NCBI GenBank assembly: GCA_050250895.1
Contig: JBFWNU010000013.1
Span: forward strand, 30,462-94,461
Length of the DNA: 64,000 nt
Reading direction: 5' to 3'
DNA from: Vulcanimicrobiota bacterium
GTDB lineage: Bacteria > Vulcanimicrobiota > Xenobia > Xenobiales > JADMJV01
The notes under the pieces: generated by a model
Databases searched by the model: none
What the model was told of the DNA's origin: nothing
What the model saw: only the letters and a program-made list of their open reading frames with translations
Shown here: one piece after another, positions 3-59,100 of the stretch
Position numbering within the stretch: the stretch's first letter is position 1
Layout: every line of letters begins with the position of its first letter
Position numbers and translations under genes: made by a program

Positions 3-164
3 ATCGATTTGACCGCGGTGGCCTGGCATTCTCCGTATCGGCAGCACGCTGCTCGGGTGTGGCTTACCCCCGTCGCTTTCGTCGAGCGTCTTGACGCCCG
101 CCACCTGCGAGCGGCCGTGGCTGCTCATCTTGCCAAGGAGGACCCATGGAAGGGCGGGTGGTGA
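3..164 (+). CDS. Possible 3' end of an upstream gene (partial, hypothetical)
   Basis: Open frame from the window edge (IDLTAVAWHSPYRQ...KEDPWKGGW*) ending at TGA 162-164, overlapping the next gene's start region. Confidence 0.3.
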   Translation: MDLTAVAWHSPYRQHAARVWLTPVAFVERLDARHLRAAVAAHLAKEDPWKGGW

Positions 165-1270
165 AGCGGCGGCGCCAACTTGAGCGATTCTTGCTGCCGC
201 GGTTGGATGGCCAAACCTGGTCCCACTCGTTGGGCGAGCAGACTACCTTCGACGGCCACTCTATTGGCATGGCCTATGAAACGGGTTTGCTGATTGAAAT
301 CAGGGTCAAGCATCTGCGCACTCGAGCCACGGCCGAGATCGAATTCTACGAGCCAGGTTGTCGCCTTCGCTACTACGGCGATATCGTGCTCAGCAGCCGT
401 CGCGATCTCGTGCGACTCTGTCGCCTGGTGGATAGAGTCCGGGCCTTCGCTGAGACCAGACAGTGGCAGGGGTCCCCGATTAGCGACGCCGCCGATGAGC
501 AGCTTGAGCCTGCCAGCGACGAAGCTCACGAGGTCTATCGCGCTGTGCTTGAGGCCCTTTATCCCGAGTCTCCCCCTGTCTATCACCGCATCCGCTCACA
601 AGTGCTCGATTGGCCTGAACTATGGTACGACGTGCGAGCACGGCGGCTGGATCTCGACCGAGAGGCCTTTCTCGCCTGGGCTGCCGCCCCGAACCAGCGC
701 CTCGTCGGCAAAGGTCCCGAGGTGTTGGACCATTTTCCTACTCCGTTTGATTTCTACGCTCGCTTTCCTCGAGCGCCTGGGCTCGTCACCTTCAGTCCGG
801 TGGGCTTTGACTCACACCTTCAACGAGCGTGTGTCTGGCTCGAGCACGATACACTGCTCAAAGGTTTCGAGCGAGGGCCGATGACCGACAAAGCCGGGCG
901 TTACCGCTCGGTGCGGCGACTGCTCGCCCTGACACGACACGATGACTGGCGACTCGATGGCTGGATCGAAGGGCACCCTGGCGAGAACGAATGGAAGGAG
1001 TTCGAGCGGGCTCGTCTGGCGGCGCTTCTTCCGAAACACGTGGTGCTCAAGCGACTTGAGTACCACGAGGAAAGGCCAGGTAGCGCTCTACTAGAGGCAA
1101 CCTGGAAGGGTACAACCCGTCAGGTGTTGGTGGTTGACCGATGGGCCCTACCGCGCCTACTATCTGGATATCCCAGCGTTCTCGTCCCGGGCATGCCCAC
1201 GGTGATCACATACCCTCTGAGTCCCGAGGTCATTGTTGAGGGGATTCAAGCTCTACTTGACGAGGCATGA
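146..1270 (+). CDS. Hypothetical protein
   Basis: 374-aa ORF with an AAGGAGG RBS just before ATG146; no recognisable motif. Confidence 0.55.
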   Translation: MEGRVVKRRRQLERFLLPRLDGQTWSHSLGEQTTFDGHSIGMAYETGLLIEIRVKHLRTRATAEIEFYEPGCRLRYYGDIVLSSRRDLVRLCRLVDRVRAFAETRQWQGSPISDAADEQLEPASDEAHEVYRAVLEALYPESPPVYHRIRSQVLDWPELWYDVRARRLDLDREAFLAWAAAPNQRLVGKGPEVLDHFPTPFDFYARFPRAPGLVTFSPVGFDSHLQRACVWLEHDTLLKGFERGPMTDKAGRYRSVRRLLALTRHDDWRLDGWIEGHPGENEWKEFERARLAALLPKHVVLKRLEYHEERPGSALLEATWKGTTRQVLVVDRWALPRLLSGYPSVLVPGMPTVITYPLSPEVIVEGIQALLDEA

Positions 1271-1295: not shown

Positions 1296-2636
1296 GTGGA
1301 CGAGTTAGCGCGCTTTATCCTGAGCGCTCGAGGAGAGGGTCGGGCCGAGAGCGAGGGGCAACTCGAACTCGACGTCGAGAAGGCAGTGGACAAGCTCAAC
1401 CGGGCCCGTCTGCCTGGGCCGACGACCTTCTTGCTGCTGGCCACGCAAGCCCTGGTGCAGACCAACTGCGCTCCCATCAAAGCCTGGAGCTGGCGCAGAT
1501 TCAAGCTGACCGGCGGTGCGGCCCCGGAGTCCCTGCATCCCGAAGCGATCCTGGCTCGTCTGGACTCGCTCCTGACCAGCTGGACATCCCCCCTGGAACG
1601 AATGGTGGTGGCCTGGCAAAGCGCCGAGGCCCAGCCGCTGCAGTCGCTCGTCTGGTATTGGTACGATGGCCAGGAGCGTGTTCGCTTGCGCTGGGACGGG
1701 CGCAAGCGCTATCTCGAAAAACCGCGCTGGGGAGGAGTCGGCACCGCTTTCATTGCCACCCCCCGCAACTGGCAACAGTTCCACCATCGGTGCCTCCCCT
1801 TGTTTGACCAGTTCCGCTGGTCCCCAGTGCCGCTTTTTGCCGGCGGAGCCCGCAAATACGGGGCTCCCGACCACCGCGATGCGGTGGCGGTGAGTTTTCG
1901 CCAGGTGGATGAGCCGGTGCCCGAGCACAGCTTCTCTTATCTTGCCTTTCCCATGCAGCAAAACCCGTGCCTCAAGCAGTTGCTGGCCCACGTCACCCAC
2001 CAGCGCGGCGGTTCGGCCACCACCCAGATCGAGGTGGTCAAAGGCGACTTTCAGCCCAGCTATCGGGGGCCGATCCCGCTGGTCGATGAGCTCATCTGGC
2101 TCGACCCGCGCTCGGCGGGCGAGATTCGGTTTGTCCAGCACGGAGTCCACACGGCCACCTTCGAGTGGGGTCTGCCCGGCGTGGTCATGGTCAGCCACTC
2201 GCGCGACCTGGACTTTGACCTGTCGGGGTTGGTTCCCATCGACAACGACAAATTCCAGGCGCGCTTTGACGAGCTGCTCGAGAGTCTGAGCCAGCTCGTG
2301 CCGCTGGCCCTCGAGCATGTCGATAGCTATCGACAACGGGCCGACCTGCCCCTGATGGACAAGAGCTTTAAAGTTGGAGGGATGGGCCTGGCCGGAGGAG
2401 CGGTGGCCGGCGGCGCCCTGGCCTTGCTCACGGGATTGCCTTTCTTGACCGTGGGTGCGGCCACGATGGTCCTGGGTACCTGGCTGGGCGGGCGCCGAGG
2501 TCATCGCCAGGACAAAGAAAGATACGTCCAAGATGTGCGGGGCTGGCTGGAACACCTTCAGCACGCTTTGAAGGAATGGAAAGAGGCCGAAGGAAGCAGT
2601 GCGGATGAAGGTCCTGATCATCACCAAGACGGATGA
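1296..2636 (+). CDS. Hsp90/HtpG-like-fold family protein with C-terminal Gly-rich membrane hairpin
   Basis: N-terminal ESEGQLELDVEKAVDKL, mid FRWSPVPL and DLDFDLSG motifs shared with 17446-18681 and 31117-32442; hydrophobic GGMGLAGGAVAGGALALL segment. GTG1296 start chosen tentatively. Confidence 0.6.
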   Translation: MDELARFILSARGEGRAESEGQLELDVEKAVDKLNRARLPGPTTFLLLATQALVQTNCAPIKAWSWRRFKLTGGAAPESLHPEAILARLDSLLTSWTSPLERMVVAWQSAEAQPLQSLVWYWYDGQERVRLRWDGRKRYLEKPRWGGVGTAFIATPRNWQQFHHRCLPLFDQFRWSPVPLFAGGARKYGAPDHRDAVAVSFRQVDEPVPEHSFSYLAFPMQQNPCLKQLLAHVTHQRGGSATTQIEVVKGDFQPSYRGPIPLVDELIWLDPRSAGEIRFVQHGVHTATFEWGLPGVVMVSHSRDLDFDLSGLVPIDNDKFQARFDELLESLSQLVPLALEHVDSYRQRADLPLMDKSFKVGGMGLAGGAVAGGALALLTGLPFLTVGAATMVLGTWLGGRRGHRQDKERYVQDVRGWLEHLQHALKEWKEAEGSSADEGPDHHQDG

Positions 2637-3591
2637 AAACGACTCGGTTCGACTGGTAAGCGAGGCCCTGCAAGCGCGCGGGGCCAGCGTCATCCGCCTC
2701 GACACCGACCTCTACCCGCAGGATGTGCGGCTGGCCAGCACCTATGAGAACGGCAAGTCCAAGATGGTGGTCAGCAGTGGTGGCCGGCGCCTCGACCTGG
2801 GTGACGTCGAGGCCGTCTATTATCGTCGTTTCGCGGCCGGCAATCTGCTCGACCCGCGCCAGCTGGGCGATACTCACGAGGCCTGCTTCAAAGAGTCGCG
2901 GCTGACCCTGTACGGCCATATCGTCTCCATGGATTGCTTTCATCTCGACCGCCTGGCGTCGGTGCGCAAAGCCGACTATAAAGAGCTTCAATTGCGCGAG
3001 GCGCAACGGCTCGGCATCGCCTGCCCGCGCACCCTGATCACCAACGACCCTGACGCCGTGCTCGAATTTCTGACCCGCACCAAAGGCCGGGTCATCACCA
3101 AGATGCAGTCGCAGTTCGCCATCTATCGCGAGGGCGAAGAGAACGTGGTCTTCACCAACGAGCTCAAGCTCGACGACCTGTCGAGCCTCGACGGGCTGCG
3201 CTTTAGTCCGATGATGTTTCAAGAGATGGTGCCCAAGCAGCTCGAACTGCGGGTGACCACGGTGGGCCACCGGGTCTTTGCGGCCGCCATCGATTCGCAA
3301 GTCTCCGACCGTGCCAAAGTCGACTGGCGCCGCGACGGTCACGCCCTCATCGACTCGTGGCAGCCTTACGAGTTTCCGCCCGACGAGGCCGAAAAGCTGC
3401 TCAAGCTAGCCAGCTGGTTCGGGCTCAACTATTCGGCGGCCGACTACATCCTGACTCCCGACGGGCAACTGGTATTCCTCGAGATGAACGCCGCCGGAGA
3501 GTGGTTCTGGCTGCAACTGATGAGCGGCCTCAACATCGCTGAAGCCATGGCCGAGGTGCTCGTCGATCCGGCCGCCCGCCGAGTGGGTTAG
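2605..3591 (+). CDS. mvdD: ATP-grasp RiPP (graspetide) maturase, MvdD/MdnC (ester-forming) family
   Basis: Motifs RLDTDLYP, KELQL, ITKMQSQFAIY..VVFTN, GLRFSPMMFQE..LELR, DWRRDG, FGLNY, FLEMNAAGEWFWL parallel microviridin MdnC/MvdD. Confidence 0.9.
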   Translation: MKVLIITKTDENDSVRLVSEALQARGASVIRLDTDLYPQDVRLASTYENGKSKMVVSSGGRRLDLGDVEAVYYRRFAAGNLLDPRQLGDTHEACFKESRLTLYGHIVSMDCFHLDRLASVRKADYKELQLREAQRLGIACPRTLITNDPDAVLEFLTRTKGRVITKMQSQFAIYREGEENVVFTNELKLDDLSSLDGLRFSPMMFQEMVPKQLELRVTTVGHRVFAAAIDSQVSDRAKVDWRRDGHALIDSWQPYEFPPDEAEKLLKLASWFGLNYSAADYILTPDGQLVFLEMNAAGEWFWLQLMSGLNIAEAMAEVLVDPAARRVG

Positions 3592-4253
3592 CGTTCGGCG
3601 ATAAACACGCTCATGGCCGCCACCGAGCCAGGATAGAGCGGGTTGCGGTCGGGGATGTTCTTGTCGTCTCCGAAGATCTCCCAGAGCACGGGGAAGAGTC
3701 CCAGTTCCGACGGTAGCCGACCGTCAAGCTGCAGATCCCCGTCGTGTTCTCGATGGGCGGTGAGACGGTAGCGCTCGGAGTTCGCGCTGCGAATCTCGAA
3801 GTCGCCGCTGCGAGGATCGCGGTCGATGGAAAAGCTCAGACCGTGGCTCGTGAAATCGACCTGCTCGTCGCCCTCGCGGAGCTCGCGCTCGATGTGGCCC
3901 CGCACGCCTCCGCGCAGGTCTAGCTGGCGGCCCTGATCGGATCGGTCGAGCTCGAGGCGCCGGCCGTTGAGCTCGATCGTGGTGTCGCCGTCGGGCCTAC
4001 CGCGAGCGATGGTTCCTTCGAGGTGGCGCCCGCCGTAGCGGCCGGTGAGAGAATTGTAGCCCTGGGCGGCGTCGCGTCCGACGGTCAGGTCGACCCGGTC
4101 GGCGCCGATTCCGCCTTCGATATGCGCATCGCCGTCGCTCGCGCCCCGGTGAACCTCGAGTTCAACCCGGTTCGGGCCGAAAGAACCTCGAATGGACGCG
4201 CTTCCGTTGGTGGGGTGGCGGTCGATAGTGATGCGAACAGGCACGGTAGACAT
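3588..4253 (-). CDS. Hypothetical beta-rich repeat protein
   Basis: ~220-aa ORF with recurring I/L-x-G-x-x-G-x-x-R-V/L-x-L segments; lies between the ATP-grasp gene and the precursor. Confidence 0.6.
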   Translation of the reverse strand: MSTVPVRITIDRHPTNGSASIRGSFGPNRVELEVHRGASDGDAHIEGGIGADRVDLTVGRDAAQGYNSLTGRYGGRHLEGTIARGRPDGDTTIELNGRRLELDRSDQGRQLDLRGGVRGHIERELREGDEQVDFTSHGLSFSIDRDPRSGDFEIRSANSERYRLTAHREHDGDLQLDGRLPSELGLFPVLWEIFGDDKNIPDRNPLYPGSVAAMSVFIAER

Positions 4254-4288
4254 GGCCACACTCTAATCGGCCATGATCAAAACAACGT

Positions 4289-4317
4289 AAAAAAACAGGC
4301 CCGCGTTGCCGCGGGCC
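4289..4317 (-). terminator. Rho-independent terminator of the precursor gene
   Basis: Minus strand GGCCCGCG-GCAA-CGCGGGCC hairpin followed by TG and a T7 run, a few bases after the stop at 4324. Confidence 0.85.
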
Positions 4318-4323
4318 GGGGTG

Positions 4324-4923
4324 TTAGGTGGGTCGGATGCCGCCCAGGTCGTGGTCGCTATCACTGGGATAGCGCAGCGTGGAAATGACTGGCGGCTTGG
4401 GACCGATGGGACACGAGTCGTGGTCAGAATCAGAGGGGTAGGCCATCGTCGTCAAGTGGGGAGGCTTGCCGCCGTGAAAGGGGGGCTTGCCACCAATGTC
4501 ACCATCGCTATCGCTAGGGTAGCGAAGGGTCGAGATGCCCGGCGGCTTCGGACCGATCGGACACGAGTCGTGGTCAGAGTCTGAAGGGTAGGCCATGGTC
4601 GTCAATTGGGGAGGCTTGCCGGGATGGTTCGGAGGCCTGCCACCACCGTCGTGGTCTGAGTCGGACGGATAGGCCATGGTGGTCATTTGCGGAGGCTTAG
4701 GACAACCGCCGCGGTGCTGGTCTTCGAGAAAGCGCTCGAAGAAGGGGCGACTGGCTGCGTTGTGGCCTCCGCCAACGTCGTTCCAGGTGCGACCGAGCAA
4801 ACCGTTGAGAGCTTTGGCACGAATGCCGGAGCCGCTATCGACGGCGGACTCAGCCGCGGCCTGGGGGGTGAGATTATATTGAAAGGGACGAGCTTCGATG
4901 GACGTTGCACTGGTGATTCGCAT
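4324..4923 (-). CDS. Multicore microviridin-like (group 1 graspetide) precursor peptide
   Basis: GGAGG RBS before ATG4923; leader motif PFFERFL (cf. PFFARFL); five cores TTMAYPSDSDHD x3, STLRYPSDSDGD, STLRYPSDSDHD. Confidence 0.9.
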   Translation of the reverse strand: MRITSATSIEARPFQYNLTPQAAAESAVDSGSGIRAKALNGLLGRTWNDVGGGHNAASRPFFERFLEDQHRGGCPKPPQMTTMAYPSDSDHDGGGRPPNHPGKPPQLTTMAYPSDSDHDSCPIGPKPPGISTLRYPSDSDGDIGGKPPFHGGKPPHLTTMAYPSDSDHDSCPIGPKPPVISTLRYPSDSDHDLGGIRPT

Positions 4924-5060
4924 CTTAACCTCCGCGTGTGTGCTTCTATGGGTTAAATGCAACAGCACGATGTTTCCAAGTCGTGAACATCAGGTTAAAT
5001 GAAAATTAAAGACTTGCAATCTCTGGAAAAATCGGTTTTTGCCGACACTATTCAGTGTCC

Positions 5061-5912
5061 CTAGCTGAGAGCGACCAGCAGAGAGCCCAATCCCGCCAGG
5101 GCCAGGGCCGCCAACCGCCGCGGAGTCAGCCGCTCGTGCAGCACCAACCAGGCCAGCAAGATCACGAACACCGTGGAAAGCTGGTTGTAGATGGCCGCCC
5201 GCCCGGGAGTGGTGTACTTGAAGCCAGAGATCCAGAACACGGTGGCCAGGTACGGACCCAGCAGACTGAGGGGGATGGTCCATTTATAGAGGTCGGTCTG
5301 GCGAAAACCTGCCCACAAATCCTCACCGCGCCACCAGGCGTAGAGCCCCAGCACGGCCGTGGCCACCAGAAAGCGATAGCCGGCGATCCACAGGACCGAC
5401 TCGGTGCGATAGAGATCTCGCACCATCAAGATGCCGACCGCCATGACGACGTGGGCCCCGGCGGCCAGAGCTACTCCGGAGAGCAATTCACGGGGTGGGG
5501 CCTCGGAGTCAAAGCGCAGCCCCACGCCGACCAGCACGCCCGCCACCACCAGGGCGCCACCCACCACCTCCCAGCCGTTAAGACCCTCGCCGAACATCAG
5601 AAAGCCCACGAAGGCCACCGAAGGAGCGTAGATGCAATCGGCAATCGCCTGCAGACTCGCCCCCAACCGGTTGAGAGCAGCCACGAACAAAGTGTCCGCA
5701 ATGGAGATGCCCAGGATCGCGCTAATCGCCAGCCGGCCGTAGGCCACGGGCGGAAGGTCAGGCCACAGCGGCAGGCCCAGGTAAAGGATGGTCGTGTAGA
5801 AGCACACCAGGGCAACCGCACTTTTGAAGAAGGTCAGCGGAATGGGCGCCAACCGCAGCCCCGACAGCCGCAACAAGATCACGGCGACCGACCAGAGCAA
5901 AGCCGAGGCCAT
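5061..5912 (-). CDS. DMT/EamA family transporter
   Basis: ~10 hydrophobic helices, two EamA halves (LGASLQA..., ...LVLHERLT); true start may lie slightly upstream. Confidence 0.85.
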   Translation of the reverse strand: MASALLWSVAVILLRLSGLRLAPIPLTFFKSAVALVCFYTTILYLGLPLWPDLPPVAYGRLAISAILGISIADTLFVAALNRLGASLQAIADCIYAPSVAFVGFLMFGEGLNGWEVVGGALVVAGVLVGVGLRFDSEAPPRELLSGVALAAGAHVVMAVGILMVRDLYRTESVLWIAGYRFLVATAVLGLYAWWRGEDLWAGFRQTDLYKWTIPLSLLGPYLATVFWISGFKYTTPGRAAIYNQLSTVFVILLAWLVLHERLTPRRLAALALAGLGSLLVALS

Positions 5913-6013: not shown

Positions 6014-7549
6014 TTAGTAAGCCACGGCGAAAAGGACCTGCTCCTTGGCGGGCTTGCCCGAGTAGACGCAGACGCCTTCGCCGCCGGGCTGGTCGAAGGG
6101 AATGCAGCGCACGGTGCCTTTGGTCTCTTCTTTGATCTTCGCCTCGGCCTCTTCGTCCTCGTTAAACCAGCAGCGAACGAAGCCTTTGCGCTCGGCCAGG
6201 GCGGCTTTGAGCTCGTCGTAGTTGTTCGCCTCGACGGTGTGCTCGTCGCGAAAGGTCGAGGCTTGCTCGAGCATGCGAGCCTGGATCTCTTCGACCTTGC
6301 CGGCCAGCCACTCGGGAGTGGCCTCGGCCAGCTCGTGAAACGACTTGCTGCGGTCCAGGCGCAGCTTGAGCACGAAGTTGCCCTTCTCGACATCGCGAGG
6401 GCCGACCTCGATGCGGAACGGCACGCCGCGCTGCTCCCAATAGAAGTGCTTCTCGACCGGCTTCTGATCGCGCAGGTCGAGCACTACCTGTTGGGCAGCC
6501 GTGTCGTCGGTGAAAACCGAGAGTTGATCGCGGTTGCCCACTCGCGACTCGGCCGCGGCCAGGCGCTTGTCTCCGCATAAGCCAGCCACGATGCGCTTGC
6601 AATACTCGAGCACCTGGGCCTTCTCTTCGTCCTTGCGGTAGATGGGCACCACGGCGGCCAGCACCGGGGCCATGCGGGGGGGCAACACCAGCCCCTCGTC
6701 GTCAGAGTGGGTCATCAGCAGGGCGCCGATGAGGCGGGTGCTGGCTCCCCATGAAGTGGTATGGCACAGGTGTTGCTGATTGTCACGACCGAGGAACTGG
6801 ATATTGAAGGCCCGGGCGAAATTCTGGCCCAGGTTGTGCGAGGTGCCGGCCTGCAAGGCCTTGCAGTCTTGCATGAGGGCCTCGATGCAATAGGTCGTGT
6901 CCGCTCCCGGAAACTTCTCGCTCTTGGTCTTGCGGCCTTTGATGACGGGCACGGCCAGAAACTCGTGAGCAAAGTCAGAATAGACGTCGAGCATCTGCAG
7001 AGTCTCGGCTTCGGCCTCTTCGTGGTTCTCGTGAGCGGTGTGGCCCTCTTGCCAGAGAAACTCGGCCGTGCGCAGAAACAGGCGAGTGCGCAGCTCCCAG
7101 CGCATGACGTTGGCCCATTGGTTGATCAGCACCGGCAGGTCGCGATAGCTCTGCACCCACTGGGCATACATGTGTCCGATGACCGTTTCAGAGGTCGGCC
7201 GCACGATCAAGGGCTCGGCCAGTTCGCCTTTGGCCACCAGCCCATCGTCGCCTTTCTCGAGGCCGCTGTGGGTGACCACTGCGCACTCCATAGCGAAGCC
7301 CTCGACGTGGTCAGCCTCTTTCTGCAGAAAGCTCACCGGAATCAGCAGCGGAAAGTAGGCGTTGACGTGACCGGTGGCTTTGAAGCGCCGGTCGAGATCA
7401 CGCTGGATCCCCTCCCAGAGGGCGTAGCCGGTAGGCCGAATGACCATGCATCCGCGCACCGGCGAATAGTCGGCCAACTCGGCCGCCTTGATGACGTCTA
7501 AATACCACTGCGAATAGTCTTCACTACGGGGTTTGATGTTTCTAGCCAT
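6014..7549 (-). CDS. proS: Proline--tRNA ligase (archaeal/eukaryote-like type)
   Basis: DYSQWY, VRGCMVIRP, RPTSET, FLRTAEFLWQEGHT, QAGTSHNLGQNF, C-terminal ...FAVAY. Confidence 0.97.
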   Translation of the reverse strand: MARNIKPRSEDYSQWYLDVIKAAELADYSPVRGCMVIRPTGYALWEGIQRDLDRRFKATGHVNAYFPLLIPVSFLQKEADHVEGFAMECAVVTHSGLEKGDDGLVAKGELAEPLIVRPTSETVIGHMYAQWVQSYRDLPVLINQWANVMRWELRTRLFLRTAEFLWQEGHTAHENHEEAEAETLQMLDVYSDFAHEFLAVPVIKGRKTKSEKFPGADTTYCIEALMQDCKALQAGTSHNLGQNFARAFNIQFLGRDNQQHLCHTTSWGASTRLIGALLMTHSDDEGLVLPPRMAPVLAAVVPIYRKDEEKAQVLEYCKRIVAGLCGDKRLAAAESRVGNRDQLSVFTDDTAAQQVVLDLRDQKPVEKHFYWEQRGVPFRIEVGPRDVEKGNFVLKLRLDRSKSFHELAEATPEWLAGKVEEIQARMLEQASTFRDEHTVEANNYDELKAALAERKGFVRCWFNEDEEAEAKIKEETKGTVRCIPFDQPGGEGVCVYSGKPAKEQVLFAVAY

Positions 7550-7701
7550 GGCGCCCCTCCTTCGCAGCCGCCCCCCCTCTAGCCTGCGCGTCGAGCCCTC
7601 AATTCGCCGTCAACACCGAAGGGGGAGGCGGGCCGCCAGAGGGCAAGAATCGCACCACCGGTCGGGGCGGGTCGGTGAAACTTTGCTCGGGCCGGCGGCC
7701 T

Positions 7702-9525
7702 TTAACCTAGCTCTACATCAGGGAAGTTATCCATCAGCCGCTCGCTGCGCATGCGTTTGGCCGTGTCGACGAAGCGATCCAGGTCGAGAGTGACCTGCTC
7801 TTTGACGCAGTAGCGGCGCCAGGTCACCTGGCGGGCCTGCTGTTCCTTCTCGCCGACGATCAGGATGTTGGGGATCTTCGAGGTCACGGCCGTGCGGATC
7901 TTCTTGTTGAAGCTGTCGTTGCCGAGATCGACCTCGGCCCGGAAGCCCAGCTTGTGCAACAGGCGCGACACTTCGACCGCGTAGTCGCCGAAGTTCTCGA
8001 CATGCACCGGCACCACCATCATCTGGGTGGGGGCCATCCAGGTAGGGAAGGCTCCCTTGAAGTGCTCGATGAGGAAAGCCAGAAAACGCTCGTGGGTGCC
8101 CAGCGGCGCGCGGTGGATGCAATAAGGAGTGTGATGCTCGCCGTCGGCGCCGACGTAGGTCAGGCCGAAACGTTCCGGCACGGCGAAATCGAGCTGATTG
8201 GTCGAGGCCGTCTCTTCGCGACCGACCACGTTCTGAATCTGGAAGTCGACTTTGGGTCCATAGAAGGCGGCCTCGCCGAAGCCGATCTCGAACTCGATGC
8301 CCGACTTCTCGAGAATCTTCTCGATGATCTTCTCCGACGATGCCCAGGCGGCCGGATTGTCGACGTATTTGGTCTTGTTGTCAGGATCGTAGACCGACAG
8401 GCGCATCCAATAACGAGCCAGCCGAAACATCTCGTAATAGTTACGATGCATCTCGAGCACGGCCGTGAATTCTTCTTCGAGCTGCTCGGCGGTGCAATAG
8501 ATATGGGCGTCGTTCATGCACATCCCACGCACCCGCAAAAGGCCCGCCAGGGCTCCTGATTGCTCGTAGCGATAACACTGGCCGTACTCGGCCAAACGCA
8601 GGGGCAACTCGCGATAAGAGCGAGGCCGGCTGCCGAAGATGAGGTGATGGAAGGGGCAGTTCATCGGCTTGAGATAATACTGCCGCTCTTCGTCGACCGT
8701 CATGGGCGGAAACATGGCGTCTTTGTAATACGGCAGATGGCCTGAAGTCTCGAACAGCTTGCCGTCGGTGACGTGGGGGGTGGCCACCCGCTGATAACCG
8801 GCCTGAAATTCGACCTCGCGGGCCAGGGCCTCGAGCTCTTCGCGCAAGACGGTGCCATTGGGCAGCCACAAGGGCAGACCCGGACCGACCTCATCGGAAA
8901 TGTGGAATAACTCGAGTTCTTTGCCCAGCTTACGATGGTCGAACTTGCGGGCTTCTTCGCGCAGCCGGATGAACTCCTTGAGTTCTTTCTTGTCCATGAA
9001 GGCCAGACCGTAGATGCGGGTCAGCATCTCGCGCTTCTCGTCACCGCGCCAGTAGGCTCCGGCCAGGTTATCGAGCTTGAAGCTGTCGGCCGGGATCTTG
9101 CCTGTGTCCTCGACGTGCGGTCCGGCACATAGGTCCTCGAAGGGCCCGTTGCGATAAAAACTGAGGGTCTCGCCGCGGTCGCCCAGTTCGCCGGCGTATT
9201 CGGCCTTGAGGTGCTCTCCCTGACCTTTGAGCATCTCGACCGCCTCGTCGGGGGACAATTCGCGATACTCGAACTCCTGGCGCTGATTGATGATCTTGCG
9301 CATCTCGTTTTCGATGGCCTTGAGGTCTTCATCCGAGATCGTCTGGGGCAGCAAGAAATCGTAATAGAACCCGTTCTCGACGGGTGGGCCGAAGCCCAGC
9401 TTGGTGCCGGGATAGAGCTTCTGAACGGCCTGGGCCATGATGTGGGCCAATGAGTGACGACGACAGTAGAGCGTGTCCTCGCTCTTGGCGGCGTGATCCA
9501 TAGTGGCGTAGGCTTTACGTGCCAT
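7702..9525 (-). CDS. thrS: Threonine--tRNA ligase (no N-terminal TGS domain)
   Basis: RHSLAHIMAQAV, DLCAGPH, DHRKLGKEL, KPMNCPFH, YRYEQSG, AAFYGPK, IHRAPLGTHERF. Confidence 0.97.
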   Translation of the reverse strand: MARKAYATMDHAAKSEDTLYCRRHSLAHIMAQAVQKLYPGTKLGFGPPVENGFYYDFLLPQTISDEDLKAIENEMRKIINQRQEFEYRELSPDEAVEMLKGQGEHLKAEYAGELGDRGETLSFYRNGPFEDLCAGPHVEDTGKIPADSFKLDNLAGAYWRGDEKREMLTRIYGLAFMDKKELKEFIRLREEARKFDHRKLGKELELFHISDEVGPGLPLWLPNGTVLREELEALAREVEFQAGYQRVATPHVTDGKLFETSGHLPYYKDAMFPPMTVDEERQYYLKPMNCPFHHLIFGSRPRSYRELPLRLAEYGQCYRYEQSGALAGLLRVRGMCMNDAHIYCTAEQLEEEFTAVLEMHRNYYEMFRLARYWMRLSVYDPDNKTKYVDNPAAWASSEKIIEKILEKSGIEFEIGFGEAAFYGPKVDFQIQNVVGREETASTNQLDFAVPERFGLTYVGADGEHHTPYCIHRAPLGTHERFLAFLIEHFKGAFPTWMAPTQMMVVPVHVENFGDYAVEVSRLLHKLGFRAEVDLGNDSFNKKIRTAVTSKIPNILIVGEKEQQARQVTWRRYCVKEQVTLDLDRFVDTAKRMRSERLMDNFPDVELG

Positions 9526-22189: not shown

Positions 22190-22267
22190 GGCCACGTAGC
22201 CCAATTGGCAAGAGGCGCGAGTTTCAGAAGCTCGAGGTTGCTGGTTCGAGTCCAGCCGTGGTCACCA
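22190..22267 (+). tRNA. tRNA-Leu(CAG) with atypical short variable loop
   Basis: GGCCACG/CGTGGTC acceptor, CGAGT-TTCAGAA-GCTCG anticodon arm, GCTGG-TTCGAGT-CCAGC T arm, A73, encoded CCA. Confidence 0.8.
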
Positions 22268-22359: not shown

Positions 22360-22446
22360 GGACAGTTGGCCGAGTGGTAAGGCGCCGGTCTTGAAAACCG
22401 GTGAGGGCGCAAGCCTGCGTGGGTTCGAATCCTACACTGTCCGCCA
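22360..22446 (+). tRNA. tRNA-Ser(TGA)
   Basis: GGACAGT/ACTGTCC acceptor, CCGGT-CTTGAAA-ACCGG anticodon arm, long variable arm, G73, encoded CCA. Confidence 0.93.
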
Positions 22447-50178: not shown

Positions 50179-53100
50179 GGCCAGCTTGTCTCGAAGCTGG
50201 AAGGCCTGCGATGTCCTCGAAGCATGGCGCGCGCTTGAGATGGCTTCAATAGGGCCAGCTCGTCACCGAGCTGGATGGCATCGAGGACATCAAGGACTTC
50301 TACGGTGAGCACGTTGCTTCAATAGGGCCAGCTCGTCACCGAGCTGGATGGTGAGCACGCTCAGCCCCTCCGTGCGGGCTCGGTAAGTCTGGCTTCAATA
50401 GGGCCAGCTCGTCACCGAGCTGGATGGTCCGTCTCTGACAATTCGAGCAGCCAGGTCAAGTAGGGGCTTCAATAGGGCCAGCTCGTCACCGAGCTGGATG
50501 GCCCCACCGCGGCTGGCGGCCCCCGTCCGCGACCATGCGCTTCAATAGGGCCAGCTCGTCACCGAGCTGGATGGATGGTAACACCCCAACAGCCCCAGAC
50601 TTTCATCGAACTGGCTTCAATAGGGCCAGCTCGTCACCGAGCTGGATGGCGGCGGCCTCGACAAACTATTACGCCTATCACAACAAGCTTCAATAGGGCC
50701 AGCTCGTCACCGAGCTGGATGGCTTGACCTTCTGGACGACGACGGCTGGGACGACCAATAGCTTCAATAGGGCCAGCTCGTCACCGAGCTGGATGGCCGG
50801 CAACTGCAGATCGCCGACCTTCCCCCGCAGTATGAGCTTCAATAGGGCCAGCTCGTCATCGAGCTGGATGGCTCGAGCGCCTGATTGAGGACCTGAAGGC
50901 CAGCGTCGGGGCTTCAATAGGGCCAGCTCGTCATCGAGCTGGATGGATGGATGACTTGTCGGTGGGGATCACGTTCATACGGTCGCGCTTCAATAGGGCC
51001 AGCTCGTCATCGAGCTGGATGGCCGTCGTGGGCTGGGATGGTAACCTGCGTGATGCTGGCGCTTCAATAGGGCCAGCTCGTCATCGAGCTGGATGGTGCA
51101 TCACGGGGAGGAGATCGCAAACTATGAATTCGATTGGCTTCAATAGGGCCAGCTCGTCATCGAGCTGGATGGCCGGAACAGATCCGCCGGATGGCATTTG
51201 GGTTGCCCGCGCTTCAATAGGGCCAGCTCGTCATCGAGCTGGATGGACCGCCGACATAGAAGCGAATCGCCTGCGCGAACGAGTGCTTCAATAGGGCCAG
51301 CTCGTCATCGAGCTGGATGGGAATCTCCGGACCATTCTGGATCGCCCGGCAGAAAATACGCTTCAATAGGGCCAGCTCGTCATCGAGCTGGATGGGCCGC
51401 CCAGATTATCCGTGATGACGCCGTTCGAGCTATGCTTCAATAGGGCCAGCTCGTCATCGAGCTGGATGGTCCGTGACGGTGGGTTCGCGCACGGCTTCCA
51501 CGTCGTAGCTTCAATAGGGCCAGCTCGTCATCGAGCTGGATGGAACCGGTTGGCGAACGCGAATGGTTCCTCTCAGTCGCTTCAATAGGGCCAGCTCGTC
51601 ATCGAGCTGGATGGACGACCCCCTGGAGATCGCCTGGCTCGACAGCGTAGCGGGGCTTCAATAGGGCCAGCTCGTCATCGAGCTGGATGGGGTGCCGGAA
51701 TTGACTCCGCTTCAACCTCGGGAGCAAAGCTTCAATAGGGCCAGCTCGTCATCGAGCTGGATGGATCTGACCAGGTGATACTGGCCACCTGGCCGGAGGG
51801 GGCTTCAATAGGGCCAGCTCGTCATCGAGCTGGATGGATAGGAGGCCGTGGAACGCAGCGTCCGCTCGGCATCCTCGCTTCAATAGGGCCAGCTCGTCAT
51901 CGAGCTGGATGGTTCTCGGAAGCCCTTCCGATAGACGCCTACTTTGGCGGCGCTTCAATAGGGCCAGCTCGTCATCGAGCTGGATGGCGATTGCGCCAGG
52001 ATCGCACTGGCCGACCAATACGACGAGCTTCAATAGGGCCAGCTCGTCATCGAGCTGGATGGAAGTAGTAAGGGACTGTAGTGGGCGAACTCCAACCAGG
52101 AAGCTTCAATAGGGCCAGCTCGTCATCGAGCTGGATGGGTTTGTTGCAGACGGTGCAGGTCATCTCGACCCCCGTTGCTTCAATAGGGCCAGCTCGTCAT
52201 CGAGCTGGATGGCCCGAGACTCGGGGGCCAGGTCGGAGGCTAGCAGCGAGCTTCAATAGGGCCAGCTCGTCATCGAGCTGGATGGACATCCAACAGAAAC
52301 CCACCATCAGGGACCCGGTGACCGGGCTTCAATAGGGCCAGCTCGTCATCGAGCTGGATGGCCCACAAGCACCCTCAAGGGAGTAAGCCTCAGCGTAATA
52401 GCTTCAATAGGGCCAGCTCGTCATCGAGCTGGATGGCCCGATCCACACCAGCTCAGCACGAGAGAAGTCACAGGGCTTCAATAGGGCCAGCTCGTCATCG
52501 AGCTGGATGGTGAGCCCAGGCCATTTCCGGGAGACCGTAGGGGTCGGGGCTTCAATAGGGCCAGCTCGTCATCGAGCTGGATGGTTCGCGGTCAGGTCCT
52601 CCTGATACTCCGCGATGACGGTGCTTCAATAGGGCCAGCTCGTCATCGAGCTGGATGGCGAATTCCTTTCAATGTGTTGTTCAGGTCTTGCTCGAGCTTC
52701 AATAGGGCCAGCTCGTCATCGAGCTGGATGGTTCTCGTGATGAGCATACCGCTCGGGCATGGTCTCGAGTGCTTCAATAGGGCCAGCTCGTCATCGAGCT
52801 GGATGGCAGTCCGGTCCGGCCGACGCCCGGCGCGGTCCGGCGAGCGCTTCAATAGGGCCAGCTCGTCATCGAGCTGGATGGCACCCCCGTCCGAGACTCT
52901 TAAGGAGGCGCTATGTCGCGGCTTCAATAGGGCCAGCTCGTCATCGAGCTGGATGGCCCGCAGCCGGTCCCGAATCTCGGTGGCCGCGAGGTCGCTTCAA
53001 TAGGGCCAGCTCGTCATCGAGCTGGATGGAACGGCCGCCAACGTGGCCGCCTGGGAGCGCGCCAGCGCTTCAATAGGGCCAGCTCGTCATCGAGCTGGAT

Positions 53101-56100
53101 GGGTAGACCGCCAGTTCCAGGTCGGCCCCGGTAAGGCCCTCGCTTCAATAGGGCCAGCTCGTCATCGAGCTGGATGGTAATCACACGTCGGAACCCCGGC
53201 GGTGTCCAGCCAAGACGCTTCAATAGGGCCAGCTCGTCATCGAGCTGGATGGAGCGCCAACCAGCAACAGGCACGAATCCTGAGCAGACCTGCTTCAATA
53301 GGGCCAGCTCGTCATCGAGCTGGATGGGTGGGGGGGGATACTACAGGTCAAATCTCAATCGAAAGGCTTCAATAGGGCCAGCTCGTCATCGAGCTGGATG
53401 GGTGAACACACCAAAGGCAAAAGCAAAAACAAAGACCAATGCGCTTCAATAGGGCCAGCTCGTCATCGAGCTGGATGGATGCACCGCCCGTCCCTCACGA
53501 CTACCACCGCCAGGACGTGCTTCAATAGGGCCAGCTCGTCATCGAGCTGGATGGCTGGACCGCCGGTGATGCCCGTCACTGACCCAGGCCAGGGCGCTTC
53601 AATAGGGCCAGCTCGTCATCGAGCTGGATGGTTCGCGTCCGCGTGCACCTGGGTGCACCGGTAGCGCTCGCTTCAATAGGGCCAGCTCGTCATCGAGCTG
53701 GATGGCCTGAGAGGTAAGTGTTGGCGATCAACGGCGAACCAGCTCGCTTCAATAGGGCCAGCTCGTCATCGAGCTGGATGGGTCTTATGGAGCCCGACTG
53801 GGCAAGCCAGTTCGCAGCTTCAATAGGGCCAGCTCGTCATCGAGCTGGATGGAGAAATATGGCCGATTTTCACCTAGTTTCCTAGTGAAGCTTCAATAGG
53901 GCCAGCTCGTCATCGAGCTGGATGGCTGGCCAAGCGCCAGGACCCCTCGCTCTACATTCTCAATTCGCTTCAATAGGGCCAGCTCGTCATCGAGCTGGAT
54001 GGAACGTCAACCTCGCGTTCGAGGCGGCCGGCGTCCGCGAGCTTCAATAGGGCCAGCTCGTCATCGAGCTGGATGGCCAGGACGGACAGGCATCATTGTG
54101 ATAGGTGGAGTCTGCGCTTCAATAGGGCCAGCTCGTCATCGAGCTGGATGGGGGGCCTACACCGTGTGCCATGTTGTTGATGCTACAAGCGCTTCAATAG
54201 GGCCAGCTCGTCATCGAGCTGGATGGACGTATGGCAAACAGGGAGGTGGCGACAATGTCTAGCAAGCTTCAATAGGGCCAGCTCGTCATCGAGCTGGATG
54301 GCCGACTAGAATCTTACCTATGAGCAACACCGACACCCCTGCTTCAATAGGGCCAGCTCGTCATCGAGCTGGATGGTTCAGGCCGCGTGTCTGTCAGCCG
54401 GGGCTGTGAGTGGGGCTTCAATAGGGCCAGCTCGTCATCGAGCTGGATGGTTTGTCCCAAACTTCGCGAAGTTCTCAGCGATGGTGTCGCTTCAATAGGG
54501 CCAGCTCGTCATCGAGCTGGATGGACCCGAAGATGGTCGGGCTCGCGATGGACACCGACCCGCTTCAATAGGGCCAGCTCGTCATCGAGCTGGATGGTAT
54601 GGGGGGATCGATGGGTCGGCCCACGATGCCACGCGCTTCAATAGGGCCAGCTCGTCATCGAGCTGGATGGCGGTCGTAGATCGGGCGGAGAACTTCCACC
54701 CTCCCCCGGCTTCAATAGGGCCAGCTCGTCATCGAGCTGGATGGCGTTTCAGCCAGGCCGTACAGCGTCTGCACTTCCTCGAGGCTTCAATAGGGCCAGC
54801 TCGTCATCGAGCTGGATGGTCATTGCCGAGCGGGAGCCGTGGAGAACACGGTGCCTGCTTCAATAGGGCCAGCTCGTCATCGAGCTGGATGGCACCTGCG
54901 AAGCCAAGACTGGTTCGTTTCGTTTGCTCCGCTTCAATAGGGCCAGCTCGTCATCGAGCTGGATGGTGGTGACCAGGAAACGCGTAAGGGCGCGCGCACC
55001 GACGCGCTTCAATAGGGCCAGCTCGTCATCGAGCTGGATGGCGGGTGTCAGGTAGACCGCGAGATCGCTGAGTGTATGCGCGCTTCAATAGGGCCAGCTC
55101 GTCATCGAGCTGGATGGCTCTAGCATACAGCTCATCGCCACACCCTCCCGTCCACCTCGCTTCAATAGGGCCAGCTCGTCATCGAGCTGGATGGCTGGGG
55201 AAATGGCAAGTGGGGAGACTTCACATGGGGAGCCAGCTTCAATAGGGCCAGCTCGTCATCGAGCTGGATGGCCGGTCGGTATGTAGTAGAGCATCTGACG
55301 CCCATAATCGGCTTCAATAGGGCCAGCTCGTCATCGAGCTGGATGGCGTTCGACGACAAGTTCATGCAGGAGGAGGCGTACTGGCTTCAATAGGGCCAGC
55401 TCGTCATCGAGCTGGATGGGCCGATGGGTTCCCCACCTACGGGGTAGACGGCGTAGCTTCAATAGGGCCAGCTCGTCATCGAGCTGGATGGCGCTTCCTG
55501 CTCTTCATTCATTGGCCGTGCAGAACCTCGCTTCAATAGGGCCAGCTCGTCATCGAGCTGGATGGGTCCAGCTCCCAAACAAACACCTAGGAGGACAATT
55601 TGAGCTTCAATAGGGCCAGCTCGTCATCGAGCTGGATGGTTCGTCGAGGTGGTGGAGAAAGTGGTCGCGCACCTGAAGCTTCAATAGGGCCAGCTCGTCA
55701 TCGAGCTGGATGGGAAGCCTGCAGACAAAGGCCCCAAGCCAGAGGACAAACCGCTTCAATAGGGCCAGCTCGTCATCGAGCTGGATGGGCGGAGGAGACC
55801 GTTTCTGGCGTTTGGCCGGCAACGAAGCTTCAATAGGGCCAGCTCGTCATCGAGCTGGATGGAGGAAAAAAAGGCATTGGTGGTCCGCCAGGAAGCGGCT
55901 GCTTCAATAGGGCCAGCTCGTCATCGAGCTGGATGGGAGTCTTCATCTCGGCCAGGCGAGCGCCCAGTGCCTCATGCTTCAATAGGGCCAGCTCGTCATC
56001 GAGCTGGATGGTTCGATATTCGTACCTGGACGACGCGAACTTCCCGCGAGCTTCAATAGGGCCAGCTCGTCATCGAGCTGGATGGGTCCGAAGCCTGGTT

Positions 56101-59100
56101 GCACGAGCAGCGGGGACAGGAATTGCTTCAATAGGGCCAGCTCGTCATCGAGCTGGATGGCTGGCAGAAAAAACGCCGCCCGGCTATCGGCCTGGGCGTA
56201 GCTTCAATAGGGCCAGCTCGTCATCGAGCTGGATGGTTCCCCTCGAGCTGTACAAACCAGGCGAAGGCCCTCTGGCTTCAATAGGGCCAGCTCGTCATCG
56301 AGCTGGATGGCTCGGCCTTCTCGGCCAGCGCCTTCCACTCGCTGGTCTGGTGGCTTCAATAGGGCCAGCTCGTCATCGAGCTGGATGGCTGCCCGGCGGG
56401 GGCGTTCCTCTTGGTGCCTTTTGAAGGCAGCTTCAATAGGGCCAGCTCGTCATCGAGCTGGATGGAGCTGGGCCTGACTGTCGCGGAGGCTGCCAGAAGG
56501 GCGGGCTTCAATAGGGCCAGCTCGTCATCGAGCTGGATGGCAGCCAATACGCCGTGTTCAAGACCACCGGAGAGGATGCTTCAATAGGGCCAGCTCGTCA
56601 TCGAGCTGGATGGGGCGACTCGAGGCCGTTCGGAGGGAGCGGGAAATTCGCCGCTTCAATAGGGCCAGCTCGTCATCGAGCTGGATGGCGGCTTGTCGGC
56701 GGGCGCATACTTGGCTCCCCAAACCGCTTCAATAGGGCCAGCTCGTCATCGAGCTGGATGGGTTGGAACGTCGGGGTAGATTATCAGGTAGCGGTTGTGC
56801 TTCAATAGGGCCAGCTCGTCATCGAGCTGGATGGTTCGTGGCCGGCAAGGTGCGCACCAACCAGCGCCACCGCTTCAATAGGGCCAGCTCGTCATCGAGC
56901 TGGATGGGACGCCAGCGAGAATTCGCTCAACGACTTCGGGAGGTGGCTTCAATAGGGCCAGCTCGTCATCGAGCTGGATGGGCTGACTCCGAGAAGATCT
57001 GGTCGTAGAGATAGGCGAGGCTTCAATAGGGCCAGCTCGTCATCGAGCTGGATGGCCGGCGGGGCTCGAGTCGTCTCCGGGATGTGCGTCGGTCTGGCTT
57101 CAATAGGGCCAGCTCGTCATCGAGCTGGATGGTGCTTCGCGGCGCCTGCGCAACCCCTCCTCGGCTGGGGTGCTTCAATAGGGCCAGCTCGTCATCGAGC
57201 TGGATGGTTAGCCCCTTCCCTGGCTTGGCACGTCCAGAGCAGGGCGCTTCAATAGGGCCAGCTCGTCATCGAGCTGGATGGTGATCAAGCCATAAAGGCA
57301 AGCCTGCCAAAGCAGAACAGCTTCAATAGGGCCAGCTCGTCATCGAGCTGGATGGCTCGAGAATGGCTCTATCAAGTTCCTTCACCTTTAGCGAGCTTCA
57401 ATAGGGCCAGCTCGTCATCGAGCTGGATGGGAAGCCCTCATTAGGGCTTTGAGAGAGGGCAAGTAGGTCGCTTCAATAGGGCCAGCTCGTCATCGAGCTG
57501 GATGGAAGCCCCCTCACCTGCGCAGGACGCTCAGCAAACCAAGAGCTTCAATAGGGCCAGCTCGTCATCGAGCTGGATGGCGCGCCCGGCTTGGCGCCCA
57601 CCTCTCCTGTCTTTTCCCGCTTCAATAGGGCCAGCTCGTCATCGAGCTGGATGGTGATGAACATCCTCATCAGGCAATCATCGAGGTTGACGCTTCAATA
57701 GGGCCAGCTCGTCATCGAGCTGGATGGTAGGATTTCATTGAGGTTATCTCCCTCCGGGTTTTCGCTTCAATAGGGCCAGCTCGTCATCGAGCTGGATGGA
57801 TCGTTGATCGTTGGAGCGATCTCGATGAGATTGCTTGCTTCAATAGGGCCAGCTCGTCATCGAGCTGGATGGGACTAGCTCGACCATCAGCGCACCACCT
57901 TCAGTTCGTAGCTTCAATAGGGCCAGCTCGTCATCGAGCTGGATGGAAGACGAGGACGATCACGGCGCCAGACGACCAAAAGGGGCTTCAATAGGGCCAG
58001 CTCGTCATCGAGCTGGATGGGACCCTGAACGAAGAAAGTTCCTGTCGCCCGACGCGAAGCTTCAATAGGGCCAGCTCGTCATCGAGCTGGATGGAACGGT
58101 GGCCTGTCTCATGCACAGATTGCCACCGACGTGCTTCAATAGGGCCAGCTCGTCATCGAGCTGGATGGCGGCGAGCACGATGAGCTGCTCGAGCACGGCT
58201 GGTCGGCTTCAATAGGGCCAGCTCGTCATCGAGCTGGATGGCCGCGACCAACTGTTGCTGCGAGCCCCGTTCGGTGATGGTTGCTTCAATAGGGCCAGCT
58301 CGTCATCGAGCTGGATGGGTCACGATGCAGGAGACACCAGAAGGGAAGCACCTGGATGCTTCAATAGGGCCAGCTCGTCATCGAGCTGGATGGTTAGCGG
58401 CACCCATTGTGGGTAGGTCCGCTGGTTGGTGCTTCAATAGGGCCAGCTCGTCATCGAGCTGGATGGCGCAGGGGCGCCAGTTCCAGTTTCCGGTACAGGG
58501 CTCGGGCTTCAATAGGGCCAGCTCGTCATCGAGCTGGATGGAGCCTGCAATGAAAGGAAAGCCTGTCGTCACCCATGTCGCTTCAATAGGGCCAGCTCGT
58601 CATCGAGCTGGATGGGACTTCTAGGAGGCCTTAGTGTCCGCTGAACTCATTAGAGCTTCAATAGGGCCAGCTCGTCATCGAGCTGGATGGCACACCTACT
58701 GGGTAGGCCCGGGTGAGGTCAGGCGACGCGCTTCAATAGGGCCAGCTCGTCATCGAGCTGGATGGAACAACAACAACAGCGTTTGTCAATAGCAAATTGT
58801 TAAGCTTCAATAGGGCCAGCTCGTCATCGAGCTGGATGGTGGTCACGGGTGCGCCAGTGCTCGTCAATCCTTCGCAGGCTTCAATAGGGCCAGCTCGTCA
58901 TCGAGCTGGATGGTCCCTGAAGGCCTTTGGTGTTCAGCCAGGCCAGGATCCCGCTTCAATAGGGCCAGCTCGTCATCGAGCTGGATGGGCCTGCGACCAC
59001 GTTTGGGCAGTCCATCGCCGAGATGGGCTTCAATAGGGCCAGCTCGTCATCGAGCTGGATGGTTCGCGGAGGACGCACCAGAGTCAGGCAGGATGTCCAC

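Follow-up and report, generated by a model that had tools for sequence, protein, structure and literature searches.

A five-core precursor and a single MvdD/MdnC-type ligase in a Vulcanimicrobiota genome, a probable marinostatin-type locus of the microviridin family

Described relatives and content of the locus

Marinostatin is a 12-residue inhibitor with the P4–P4′ sequence Phe-Ala-Thr-Met4-Arg-Tyr-Pro-Ser, in which Met4 is the P1 residue, and its inhibition constant (Ki) on subtilisin is given as 1.5 nM (PMC9623506); it is described as having the lactone ring architecture of the microviridins and no lactam ring (PMC13039773). Expression of the marinostatin cluster of Algicola sagamiensis in E. 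coli yielded the bicyclic marinostatin E, ATMRYPSDSDEDGFN (PMC10125368, citing Unno 2021). The marinostatin leader carries a PFFARFL motif, and the absence of MdnB is called normal and likely to lead to marinostatin (PMC7823629, citing Ahmed 2017). Class II of the 2017 classification comprises precursors with up to five tandem cores, which are thought to be cut into single cores and are frequently, although not obligatorily, accompanied by a transporter with a C39 peptidase (PMC7823629, PMC13039773). Chryseoviridin is described as a multi-ring, ester-only product of one ligase that has no lactam and is still a serine-protease inhibitor (PMC10125368), and more than 20,000 predicted graspetides are contained in a data set mentioned by PMC13097080 (2026). 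The present analysis concerns a graspetide locus, consisting of a five-core precursor gene and one ATP-grasp ligase gene, in a 64,000-nucleotide stretch of a Vulcanimicrobiota bacterium (assembly GCA_050250895.1, contig JBFWNU010000013.1, positions 30,462 to 94,461), hereafter the window. With a probability of about 80%, we assign this locus to the microviridin family of graspetides, as a marinostatin-type (lactone-only) member with several cores. Its features are as follows.

2605..3591, plus strand: ATP-grasp peptide maturase, predicted MvdD/MdnC (ester-forming) type, 328 aa (PF21068, TIGR04184, 5ig9_A, tree)
4324..4923, minus strand: five-core precursor, microviridin/marinostatin family, 199 aa (PF12559, NF033738, homologues P0002 and P0003)
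4717..4749, minus strand: leader recognition motif RPFFERFLEDQ, residues 59–69 (translation, alignment of seven precursors)
4648..4680, minus strand: core 1, TMAYPSDSDHD, residues 82–92
4567..4599, minus strand: core 2, TMAYPSDSDHD, residues 109–119
4498..4530, minus strand: core 3, TLRYPSDSDGD, residues 132–142
4417..4449, minus strand: core 4, TMAYPSDSDHD, residues 159–169
4348..4380, minus strand: core 5, TLRYPSDSDHD, residues 182–192
4298..4317, minus strand: terminator-like hairpin, 8 G-C pairs then T7, directly 3′ of the precursor stop (consensus scan)

The precursor gene runs on the minus strand from an ATG at 4923 to a stop at 4324 with an intact reading frame, and a GGAGG is located at 4929–4933, 5 nt 5′ of the ATG. 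The protein scored 40.8 bits against PF12559 Inhibitor_I10 (cut-off 21) and 61.5 bits against NF033738, the "microviridin/marinostatin family" (cut-off 26). The E-values from the hidden Markov models (2.6e-10 and 9.7e-17), together with two close homologues, P0002 (82% identity) and P0003 (76%), that have the same starting residues, leader and cores, indicate more than a chance resemblance. Within the leader, P60, F61, F62, F65, L66, E67 and Q69 were invariant in seven aligned precursors. The residues of the ester pairs, namely Thr1, Pro5, Ser6, Asp7 and an acid at position 9, are present in all five window cores, and the lactam pair is absent, with Lys3 in none of the five and His or Gly at position 10. 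A preliminary description of the window had proposed a leader followed by five T(M/L)(A/R)YPSDSD(H/G)D cores, convergent with one ligase, and the loss of both lactam partners in every core; the coordinates and content were confirmed, and the loss is borne out. Directly before every core stands Lys-Pro-Pro. Gly-Gly occurs at residues 72, 93, 144, 151 and 194 and flanks core 1 as well as each two-core unit composed of a Met-core, the linker SCPIGPKPP and a Leu-core; the linker inside the pair contains no Gly-Gly, and P0002 and P0003 retain this two-core unit with its Cys. The terminator-like hairpin comes from a consensus scan only, which gave 2 sites in the region against 1.9 expected. When the precursor was searched against proteins of 30–108 aa for single-core relatives, six candidates were returned, none of them with E <= 0.01.

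The ligase gene, with an ATG at 2605 and a stop at 3591 on the plus strand, is intact and full length. Its N-terminal region corresponds to PF21068, "MvdD pre-ATP grasp", with 103.8 bits (cut-off 27) and coverage of the whole profile (1–121). Among the NCBIfam models, TIGR04184 (MvdD) ranked first with 393.6 bits, followed by TIGR04185 (MvdC) with 249.5 bits and TIGR04187, the general maturase of ribosomally synthesised, post-translationally modified peptides (RiPPs), with 230.1 bits. The best solved structure was 5ig9_A (293.9 bits over residues 1–325), which is MdnC, a lactone-forming ligase (PMC7823629); the next solved relatives were CdnC 7mgv (244.2 bits), 5ig8 (212.2 bits) and AMdnB 7m4s (177.6 bits). 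By manual count on the alignment to 5ig9, Gln206 and Glu214 of the window enzyme correspond to the identical Gln207 and Glu215 of MdnC, and Asp190 and Asp191 correspond, conservatively, to Glu191 and Asp192. In MdnC the former pair is described as catalytic and the latter as making leader contacts (PMC12848669). Gln206 and Glu214 were also invariant across nine aligned ligases.

The ligase phylogeny, one of the checks proposed in the preliminary description, agreed with these matches. In a FastTree analysis of 114 ligases, the window enzyme fell among 73 D-type rows, separate from 41 C-type rows. An IQ-TREE quick search on 55 rows, composed of 50 D-type rows with a classified precursor and 5 C-type rows (23 D-type rows without a precursor and 36 other C-type rows were omitted), placed the C-type rows on one side with a support of 100 and the window enzyme as sister to that of the Vulcanimicrobiota locus L039 with a support of 99. 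The trees were built without the characterised marinostatin ligase of Algicola sagamiensis. Assignment of the window ligase to the ester-forming MvdD/MdnC type is thus supported at the level of sequence comparison, and the single MvdD/MdnC-like ATP-grasp ligase that had been claimed for the window is borne out by PF21068, by the higher rank of TIGR04184 over TIGR04185 and by the match to the MdnC structure.

Ligase number and core residues in the genome and in related loci

The source assembly amounts to 9.5 Mb in 17 contigs and is 99.64% complete. Of the sequencing runs listed none was from RNA, and each of six DNA runs contained 0.05–0.11 of the sampled words. PF21068 had one match in the whole genome, and a search with the ligase protein gave one further match, on contig C2 (C2:878733-879623; 29% identity, E = 5e-20). 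The best model for this second ATP-grasp protein was TIGR04187 with 149.6 bits, and the MvdC model TIGR04185 gave 115.7 bits (cut-off 425). The surrounding locus (L014, C2:872000-886000) contains, at its positions 6716-9463 on the minus strand, the ATP-grasp maturase, a degenerate ATP-grasp-like open reading frame (ORF) and a 319-aa protein with Lys/Glu-rich repeats of about 31 residues each, which is a likely substrate of the C2 enzyme; in our reading this is an independent graspetide locus that has its own substrate. No second MvdD/MvdC-type ligase was found in the genome by the PF21068 and ligase-protein searches. The statement that the window has no mvdC therefore stands, and the genome-wide search for mvdC likewise gave no MvdC-type ligase. 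A six-frame scan of the genome for core and leader motifs detected two more precursors, with no ligase nearby.

C1:3003599-3004462, minus strand: unlinked 7-core precursor (L107), cores T(Q/M)AYPSDSD(H/T)D (six-frame scan, PF12559)
C1:2826513-2827157, minus strand: unlinked 4-core precursor (L108), cores TLRYPSDSDSD (six-frame scan, PF12559)

Altogether the genome has 16 cores on three precursors, and Lys3 is found in 0/16. The residue after Thr is Met in five, Leu in six and Gln in five of these cores, and Trp, Gly and PFFxxFLExQ residues are invariant across the three leaders.

For comparison purposes, 61 genomes were searched, of which 22, including the window's own, had a ligase match with E <= 1e-10; the closest loci came from metagenome-assembled genomes of Vulcanimicrobiota, 'Candidatus Eremiobacteraeota' and 'Candidatus Xenobia'. 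In the scan of a genome collection, a single-ligase query confirmed nothing and a query built from an alignment of nine ligases gave loci. After duplicates of the collection loci had been dropped, 76 loci were classified (the window, 7 loci from individual genomes and 68 from the collection), and for each of them the number of full-length ligase matches and the cores found by a regular expression were recorded. Among the 40 two-ligase loci, 30 had only Lys3 cores, 2 were mixed, none was Lys-less and 8 had no precursor found. The 35 one-ligase loci included 14 Lys-less loci (the window among them), 4 mixed, 1 all-Lys and 16 with no precursor found; the one remaining locus of the 76 had only a partial ligase. 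Consequently, all 14 loci with exclusively Lys-less cores have one ligase, and 30 of the 31 Lys-only loci have two. The residue at position 10 varied in the same way: the 215 cores of the 31 all-Lys loci carry Asp (165) or Glu (50) without exception, and the 14 Lys-less loci, with 70 cores, have Asp in 17 of these and Glu in none. At position 3, the same 70 cores carry Arg (53) or Ala (17). The loss of Lys3 and of the position-10 acid goes with a single ligase, so that an ester-only reading of the window cores is well supported by comparison.

The distribution of Lys-less cores over the ligase tree was also considered. On the 55-row tree the Lys-less label required five changes, of which at least three were forced by well-supported branches, and a single clade of the 14 Lys-less ligases was rejected by the approximately unbiased (AU) test with p = 5.6e-8, the group for this test having been named after the first tree was seen. 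Several losses of the lactam thus seem to have occurred, Xenobia and Archangium being among the groups affected. At the level of proteins, a full HMMER search of 1.84 billion representative sequences returned 48 with E <= 0.001, of which, by the same core expression, 15 were multi-core and wholly Lys-less, 19 multi-core and wholly Lys-bearing, 11 mixed and 3 without a core; public data contain at least 15 further clusters with Lys-less multi-core precursors. A word-indexed search at similar length gave three relatives besides the window's own protein.

Some of the surveyed loci showed other arrangements. L038 (G009:C232), L068, L077 and L087 depart from the rule, with Lys-bearing or mixed cores and one ligase in the stretch covered for each locus, that of L038 being of the C type. 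Certain loci scored as having no precursor do carry other core types, such as TQA(V/I/L)GEGD and T(E/H)M(Q/C)PETPDGGP, beside a single ligase. Single MvdD-type ligases are located beside precursors with PFFGRFL-type leaders in L035 (4179-4997), L036 (4251-4988), L037 (3575-4264) and L032 (5005-5625). The cores repeated across these four loci, TQA(V/I/L)GEGD, S(M/H/Q)AKHETDRDE and T(E/H)M(Q/C)PETPDGGP, may represent undescribed core types of the microviridin family.

Proposed maturation and competing explanations

According to the proposed mechanism, the precursor would be translated with one leader, whose PFFERFL helix would dock on the single MvdD/MdnC-type ATP-grasp ligase. With ATP, the enzyme would form two side-chain esters per core, Thr1–Asp7 and Ser6–Asp9, so that ten waters would be removed over the five cores. 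No lactam would be made in the window cores, since every one of them lacks Lys3 and the position-10 acid and the genome lacks an MvdC-type ligase. The same ligase probably also matures the two unlinked C1 precursors, with their 7 and 4 cores. When the window ligase was modelled in complex with residues 33–95 of the 4-core precursor, the score was 0.61 versus 0.00 for the best control; 116 of 157 solved complexes attained this value, as did 2 of 215 mismatched pairs. The three runs agreed in at least 73% of contacts, with a predicted local distance difference test (pLDDT) value of at least 50 for the partner, and the modelled interface includes the PFF..FLEGQ leader residues and the PSDSDSD of the first core. 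This result may reflect likeness to the solved MdnC–leader complex 5IG9 and is no proof of binding.

By analogy with marinostatin, the window products are expected to have two lactone rings and to act as serine-protease inhibitors of the canonical mechanism. Their P1 residue would be the one following Thr, that is, Met or Leu in the window and any of Gln, Met and Leu on the unlinked precursors, and subtilisin-, chymotrypsin- or elastase-like enzymes would be the expected targets. The earlier suggestion of Met/Leu at the specificity position is reasonable, because the residue after Thr is the P1 residue, Met4, in marinostatin (PMC9623506). Cleavage at Gly-Gly would yield one single-headed and two double-headed peptides.

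Several observations weigh against the lactone-only reading. The ester positions rest on the analogy with marinostatin, and membership of the MvdD clade is in itself no proof of ester-only chemistry, since one enzyme of this clade, MyxD1, has been shown to form lactams on KxxE motifs (PMC12848669). The 393.6 bits of the ligase lie below the TIGR04184 equivalog cut-off of 475, MvdD still being the top-scoring family. Regarding the survey, the core expression requires P5, S/T6, D7 and D/E9, some of the one-ligase loci end at a contig edge, and the loci, drawn from related genomes, are not independent of one another. Likewise, ligase and precursor are convergent and not co-transcribed, with an unrelated ORF between them and the terminator-like hairpin after the precursor, while in the relatives that have a precursor beside the ligase it is located directly upstream on the same strand. 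Finally, profile scans of the window ORFs detected no leader or Gly-Gly peptidase and no exporter, and the sole C39 peptidase detected in the genome, a stand-alone protein of 226 aa, is located on contig C7 and adjoins an M29 aminopeptidase.

The convergent layout could be taken as a sign that the locus is a decaying or rearranged remnant, in which the ligase, separated from the precursor by an inversion or insertion, no longer acts on it; the unrelated ORF between the genes and the upstream, same-strand precursors of the inspected relatives are in line with this. However, neither reading frame is interrupted or truncated, the precursor has an intact leader motif and is preceded by a strong ribosome-binding site, all ring-forming residues are kept in 5/5 cores, close homologues are 76–82% identical and the genome holds two further intact precursors, which makes decay the least probable of the explanations considered; the layout in the window is a local rearrangement. 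It is improbable that each core carries a cross-link in addition to the two esters and so differs from marinostatin in topology. The candidates for such a link are a third lactone, Ser8–Asp11, and a lactam from a linker Lys, formed by the window ligase or by the distant C2 ATP-grasp. Ser8 and Asp11 are indeed present in 16/16 genome cores, at the i to i+3 distance that also separates Ser6 and Asp9, but the SDSDED stretch is shared by marinostatin E, a peptide reported as bicyclic (PMC10125368), relatives have Ala or Asn at position 8 and still keep Asp11 (e.g., TMAYPSDADAD and THRYPSDNDAD), and the Lys-less cores of Archangium have no Asp11. Similarly, the Lys-Pro-Pro before each window core and the lactam-forming ability of an MvdD-clade enzyme (PMC12848669) would suit a linker lactam, whereas the pre-core basic residue is replaced by Arg, Glu or Asn in relatives and its distance is variable in the two C1 precursors. 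As for the second RiPP-type ATP-grasp at C2:878733-879623, it is 29% identical, scores best on TIGR04187 and adjoins its own Lys/Glu-rich repeat protein. Even less probable than an extra link in general is the specific case of the Ser8–Asp11 lactone, that is, an all-ester tricyclic cage formed by a single ligase with a lactone replacing the microviridin lactam, given that marinostatin E is bicyclic with the same residues and that relatives keep Asp11 without Ser8; if true, this topology would be undescribed for the microviridin family. The third ester and the linker-Lys lactam were both considered and mostly rejected on the basis of marinostatin E and the relatives' cores.

A different matter is the form in which marinostatin-type products would be released. 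With the ester chemistry unchanged, the final products could be multi-headed, either as the whole five-core chain or as two-core units cut at Gly-Gly. Two-headed products are possible given the Gly-Gly bounds (residues 72, 93, 144, 151 and 194, and none in the SCPIGPKPP linker inside the Met-core/Leu-core pair) and the conservation of the pair with its Cys in P0002 and P0003; the scans of the window ORFs gave no dedicated peptidase in the locus, and the potency of plesiocin is described as rising with the number of cyclised motifs (PMC13097080). Against this, the characterised marinostatins and microviridins are described as single-core peptides (PMC9623506, PMC10125368), and the cleavage of class II precursors is presumed to give single cores (PMC7823629, PMC13039773). 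We therefore regard multi-headed release as somewhat unlikely, although clearly more plausible than an extra cross-link.

Surroundings of the locus and relation to known systems

The ORF located between ligase and precursor, at 3588-4259 on the minus strand, has 223 codons (ORF223) and had not been mentioned in the preliminary description. It had no Pfam or NCBIfam match and has one paralogue on contig C1 with 32% identity; its feature-based look-alikes are unannotated, except for one labelled "polymer-forming cytoskeletal" at 0.90, which is a lead only. The other genes adjoining the locus are the following.

146-1270, plus strand: upstream ORF, 374 aa
1233-2636, plus strand: upstream ORF, 467 aa, overlapping the ligase start
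5061-5912, minus strand: EamA transporter

ORF223, the 467-aa and 374-aa ORFs and the EamA transporter were rejected as members of the cluster, as tblastn gave no match with E <= 1e-3 in any of the related loci searched. The family of the 467-aa ORF is expanded in Vulcanimicrobiota, with 27 matches in the source genome including the ORF itself. A weak paralogue (BLASTP E = 3e-8) is located at a distance of about 2.2 kb from the unlinked 7-core precursor, a proximity that is probably due to chance in view of the 27 family matches. The predicted model of this ORF resembles HSP90/GHKL-type ATPases (TM 0.53–0.59), again as a lead only. Among the 36 long window ORFs scanned, no second ATP-grasp, acetyltransferase, C39 transporter or protease was found. 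Elsewhere in the window, ProRS and ThrRS were recognised from the translations, two tRNA genes are located at 22190-22264 and 22360-22443 on the plus strand, and a very large array of clustered regularly interspaced short palindromic repeats (CRISPR) occupies 50370-64000 on the plus strand up to the window end, with 173 copies, a shared part of about 37 nt and a period of 73–76 nt. No ORF longer than 190 aa is present in the 50.3–64 kb CRISPR region, and no cas gene was found among the scanned ORFs upstream of the array.

The genome offers a compact set for the production of marinostatin-like serine-protease inhibitors, composed of one ligase, three natural precursors and 16 cores, with natural variation at P1 (Met, Leu or Gln) and P1′ (Ala or Arg). 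The joint loss of Lys3, the position-10 acid and the second ligase constitutes a clean natural experiment, and, together with the rejected single origin of the Lys-less ligases, it supports the accepted view of how the two microviridin ligases divide their work. Loci of the microviridin family are numerous and varied in Eremiobacterota/Xenobia genomes. Among the literature matches listed, no paper was found linking graspetides or microviridins with Eremiobacterota, Xenobia or Vulcanimicrobiota, and earlier graspetide data sets may list such precursors.

When compared to marinostatin and marinostatin E, the window locus shares a T-M-R-Y-P-S-D-S-D core without Lys, Met after Thr and a PFFARFL-type leader, and its cores are identical to marinostatin E, ATMRYPSDSDEDGFN, at 9 of 11 positions. 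It differs in carrying five cores on one precursor, with two further precursors in the genome, while marinostatin's own precursor has a single core. Other differences concern Ala in place of Arg at P1′ in 3/5 window cores, His or Gly at position 10 where marinostatin E has Glu, the convergent position of the precursor relative to the ligase instead of beside it, and the host, which belongs to the little-studied Eremiobacterota/Xenobia and not to the marine gammaproteobacteria (Alteromonas / Algicola sagamiensis). With class II (AMdnA/AMdnC of Anabaena PCC 7120) the locus has in common one leader, tandem cores, Gly-Gly between cores and an MdnC-type ligase, which in class II acts on every core. 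Class II as described has cores with the lactam Lys, a second ligase (AMdnB, PDB 7m4s) and often a C39-peptidase transporter, whereas the window locus lacks the Lys, the second ligase and the transporter. The chryseoviridin system (CdnA3 and CdnC of Chryseobacterium) resembles it in the single ATP-grasp ligase and in an ester-only, multi-ring product, which is predicted in the case of the window; in contrast, chryseoviridin bears four additional esters that lie outside the bicyclic microviridin core, its precursor is laid out differently, and MdnC (293.9 bits) is a closer match to the window ligase than CdnC, the second-best solved relative (244.2 bits). With the tricyclic microviridins (MdnA, MdnC/MvdD, MdnB/MvdC) it shares the leader motif and the TxxYPSDx(D/E) core and, as predicted, a ligase of the ester-forming type and a role in protease inhibition, but it lacks the pair for the Lys3-to-acid lactam and the second ligase.

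The preliminary description had further proposed a new bicyclic ester-only subclass, which is not borne out: the chemistry corresponds to that of marinostatin, and both multi-core clusters and clusters without the lactam ligase are already published. Lactam-less, ester-only chemistry is thus already known in kind, and the locus opens no new class of chemistry. What is new here is the occurrence of many marinostatin-type cores on one precursor, the presence of three precursors probably served by one ligase, the Eremiobacterota/Xenobia host and the conserved two-core unit bounded by Gly-Gly.

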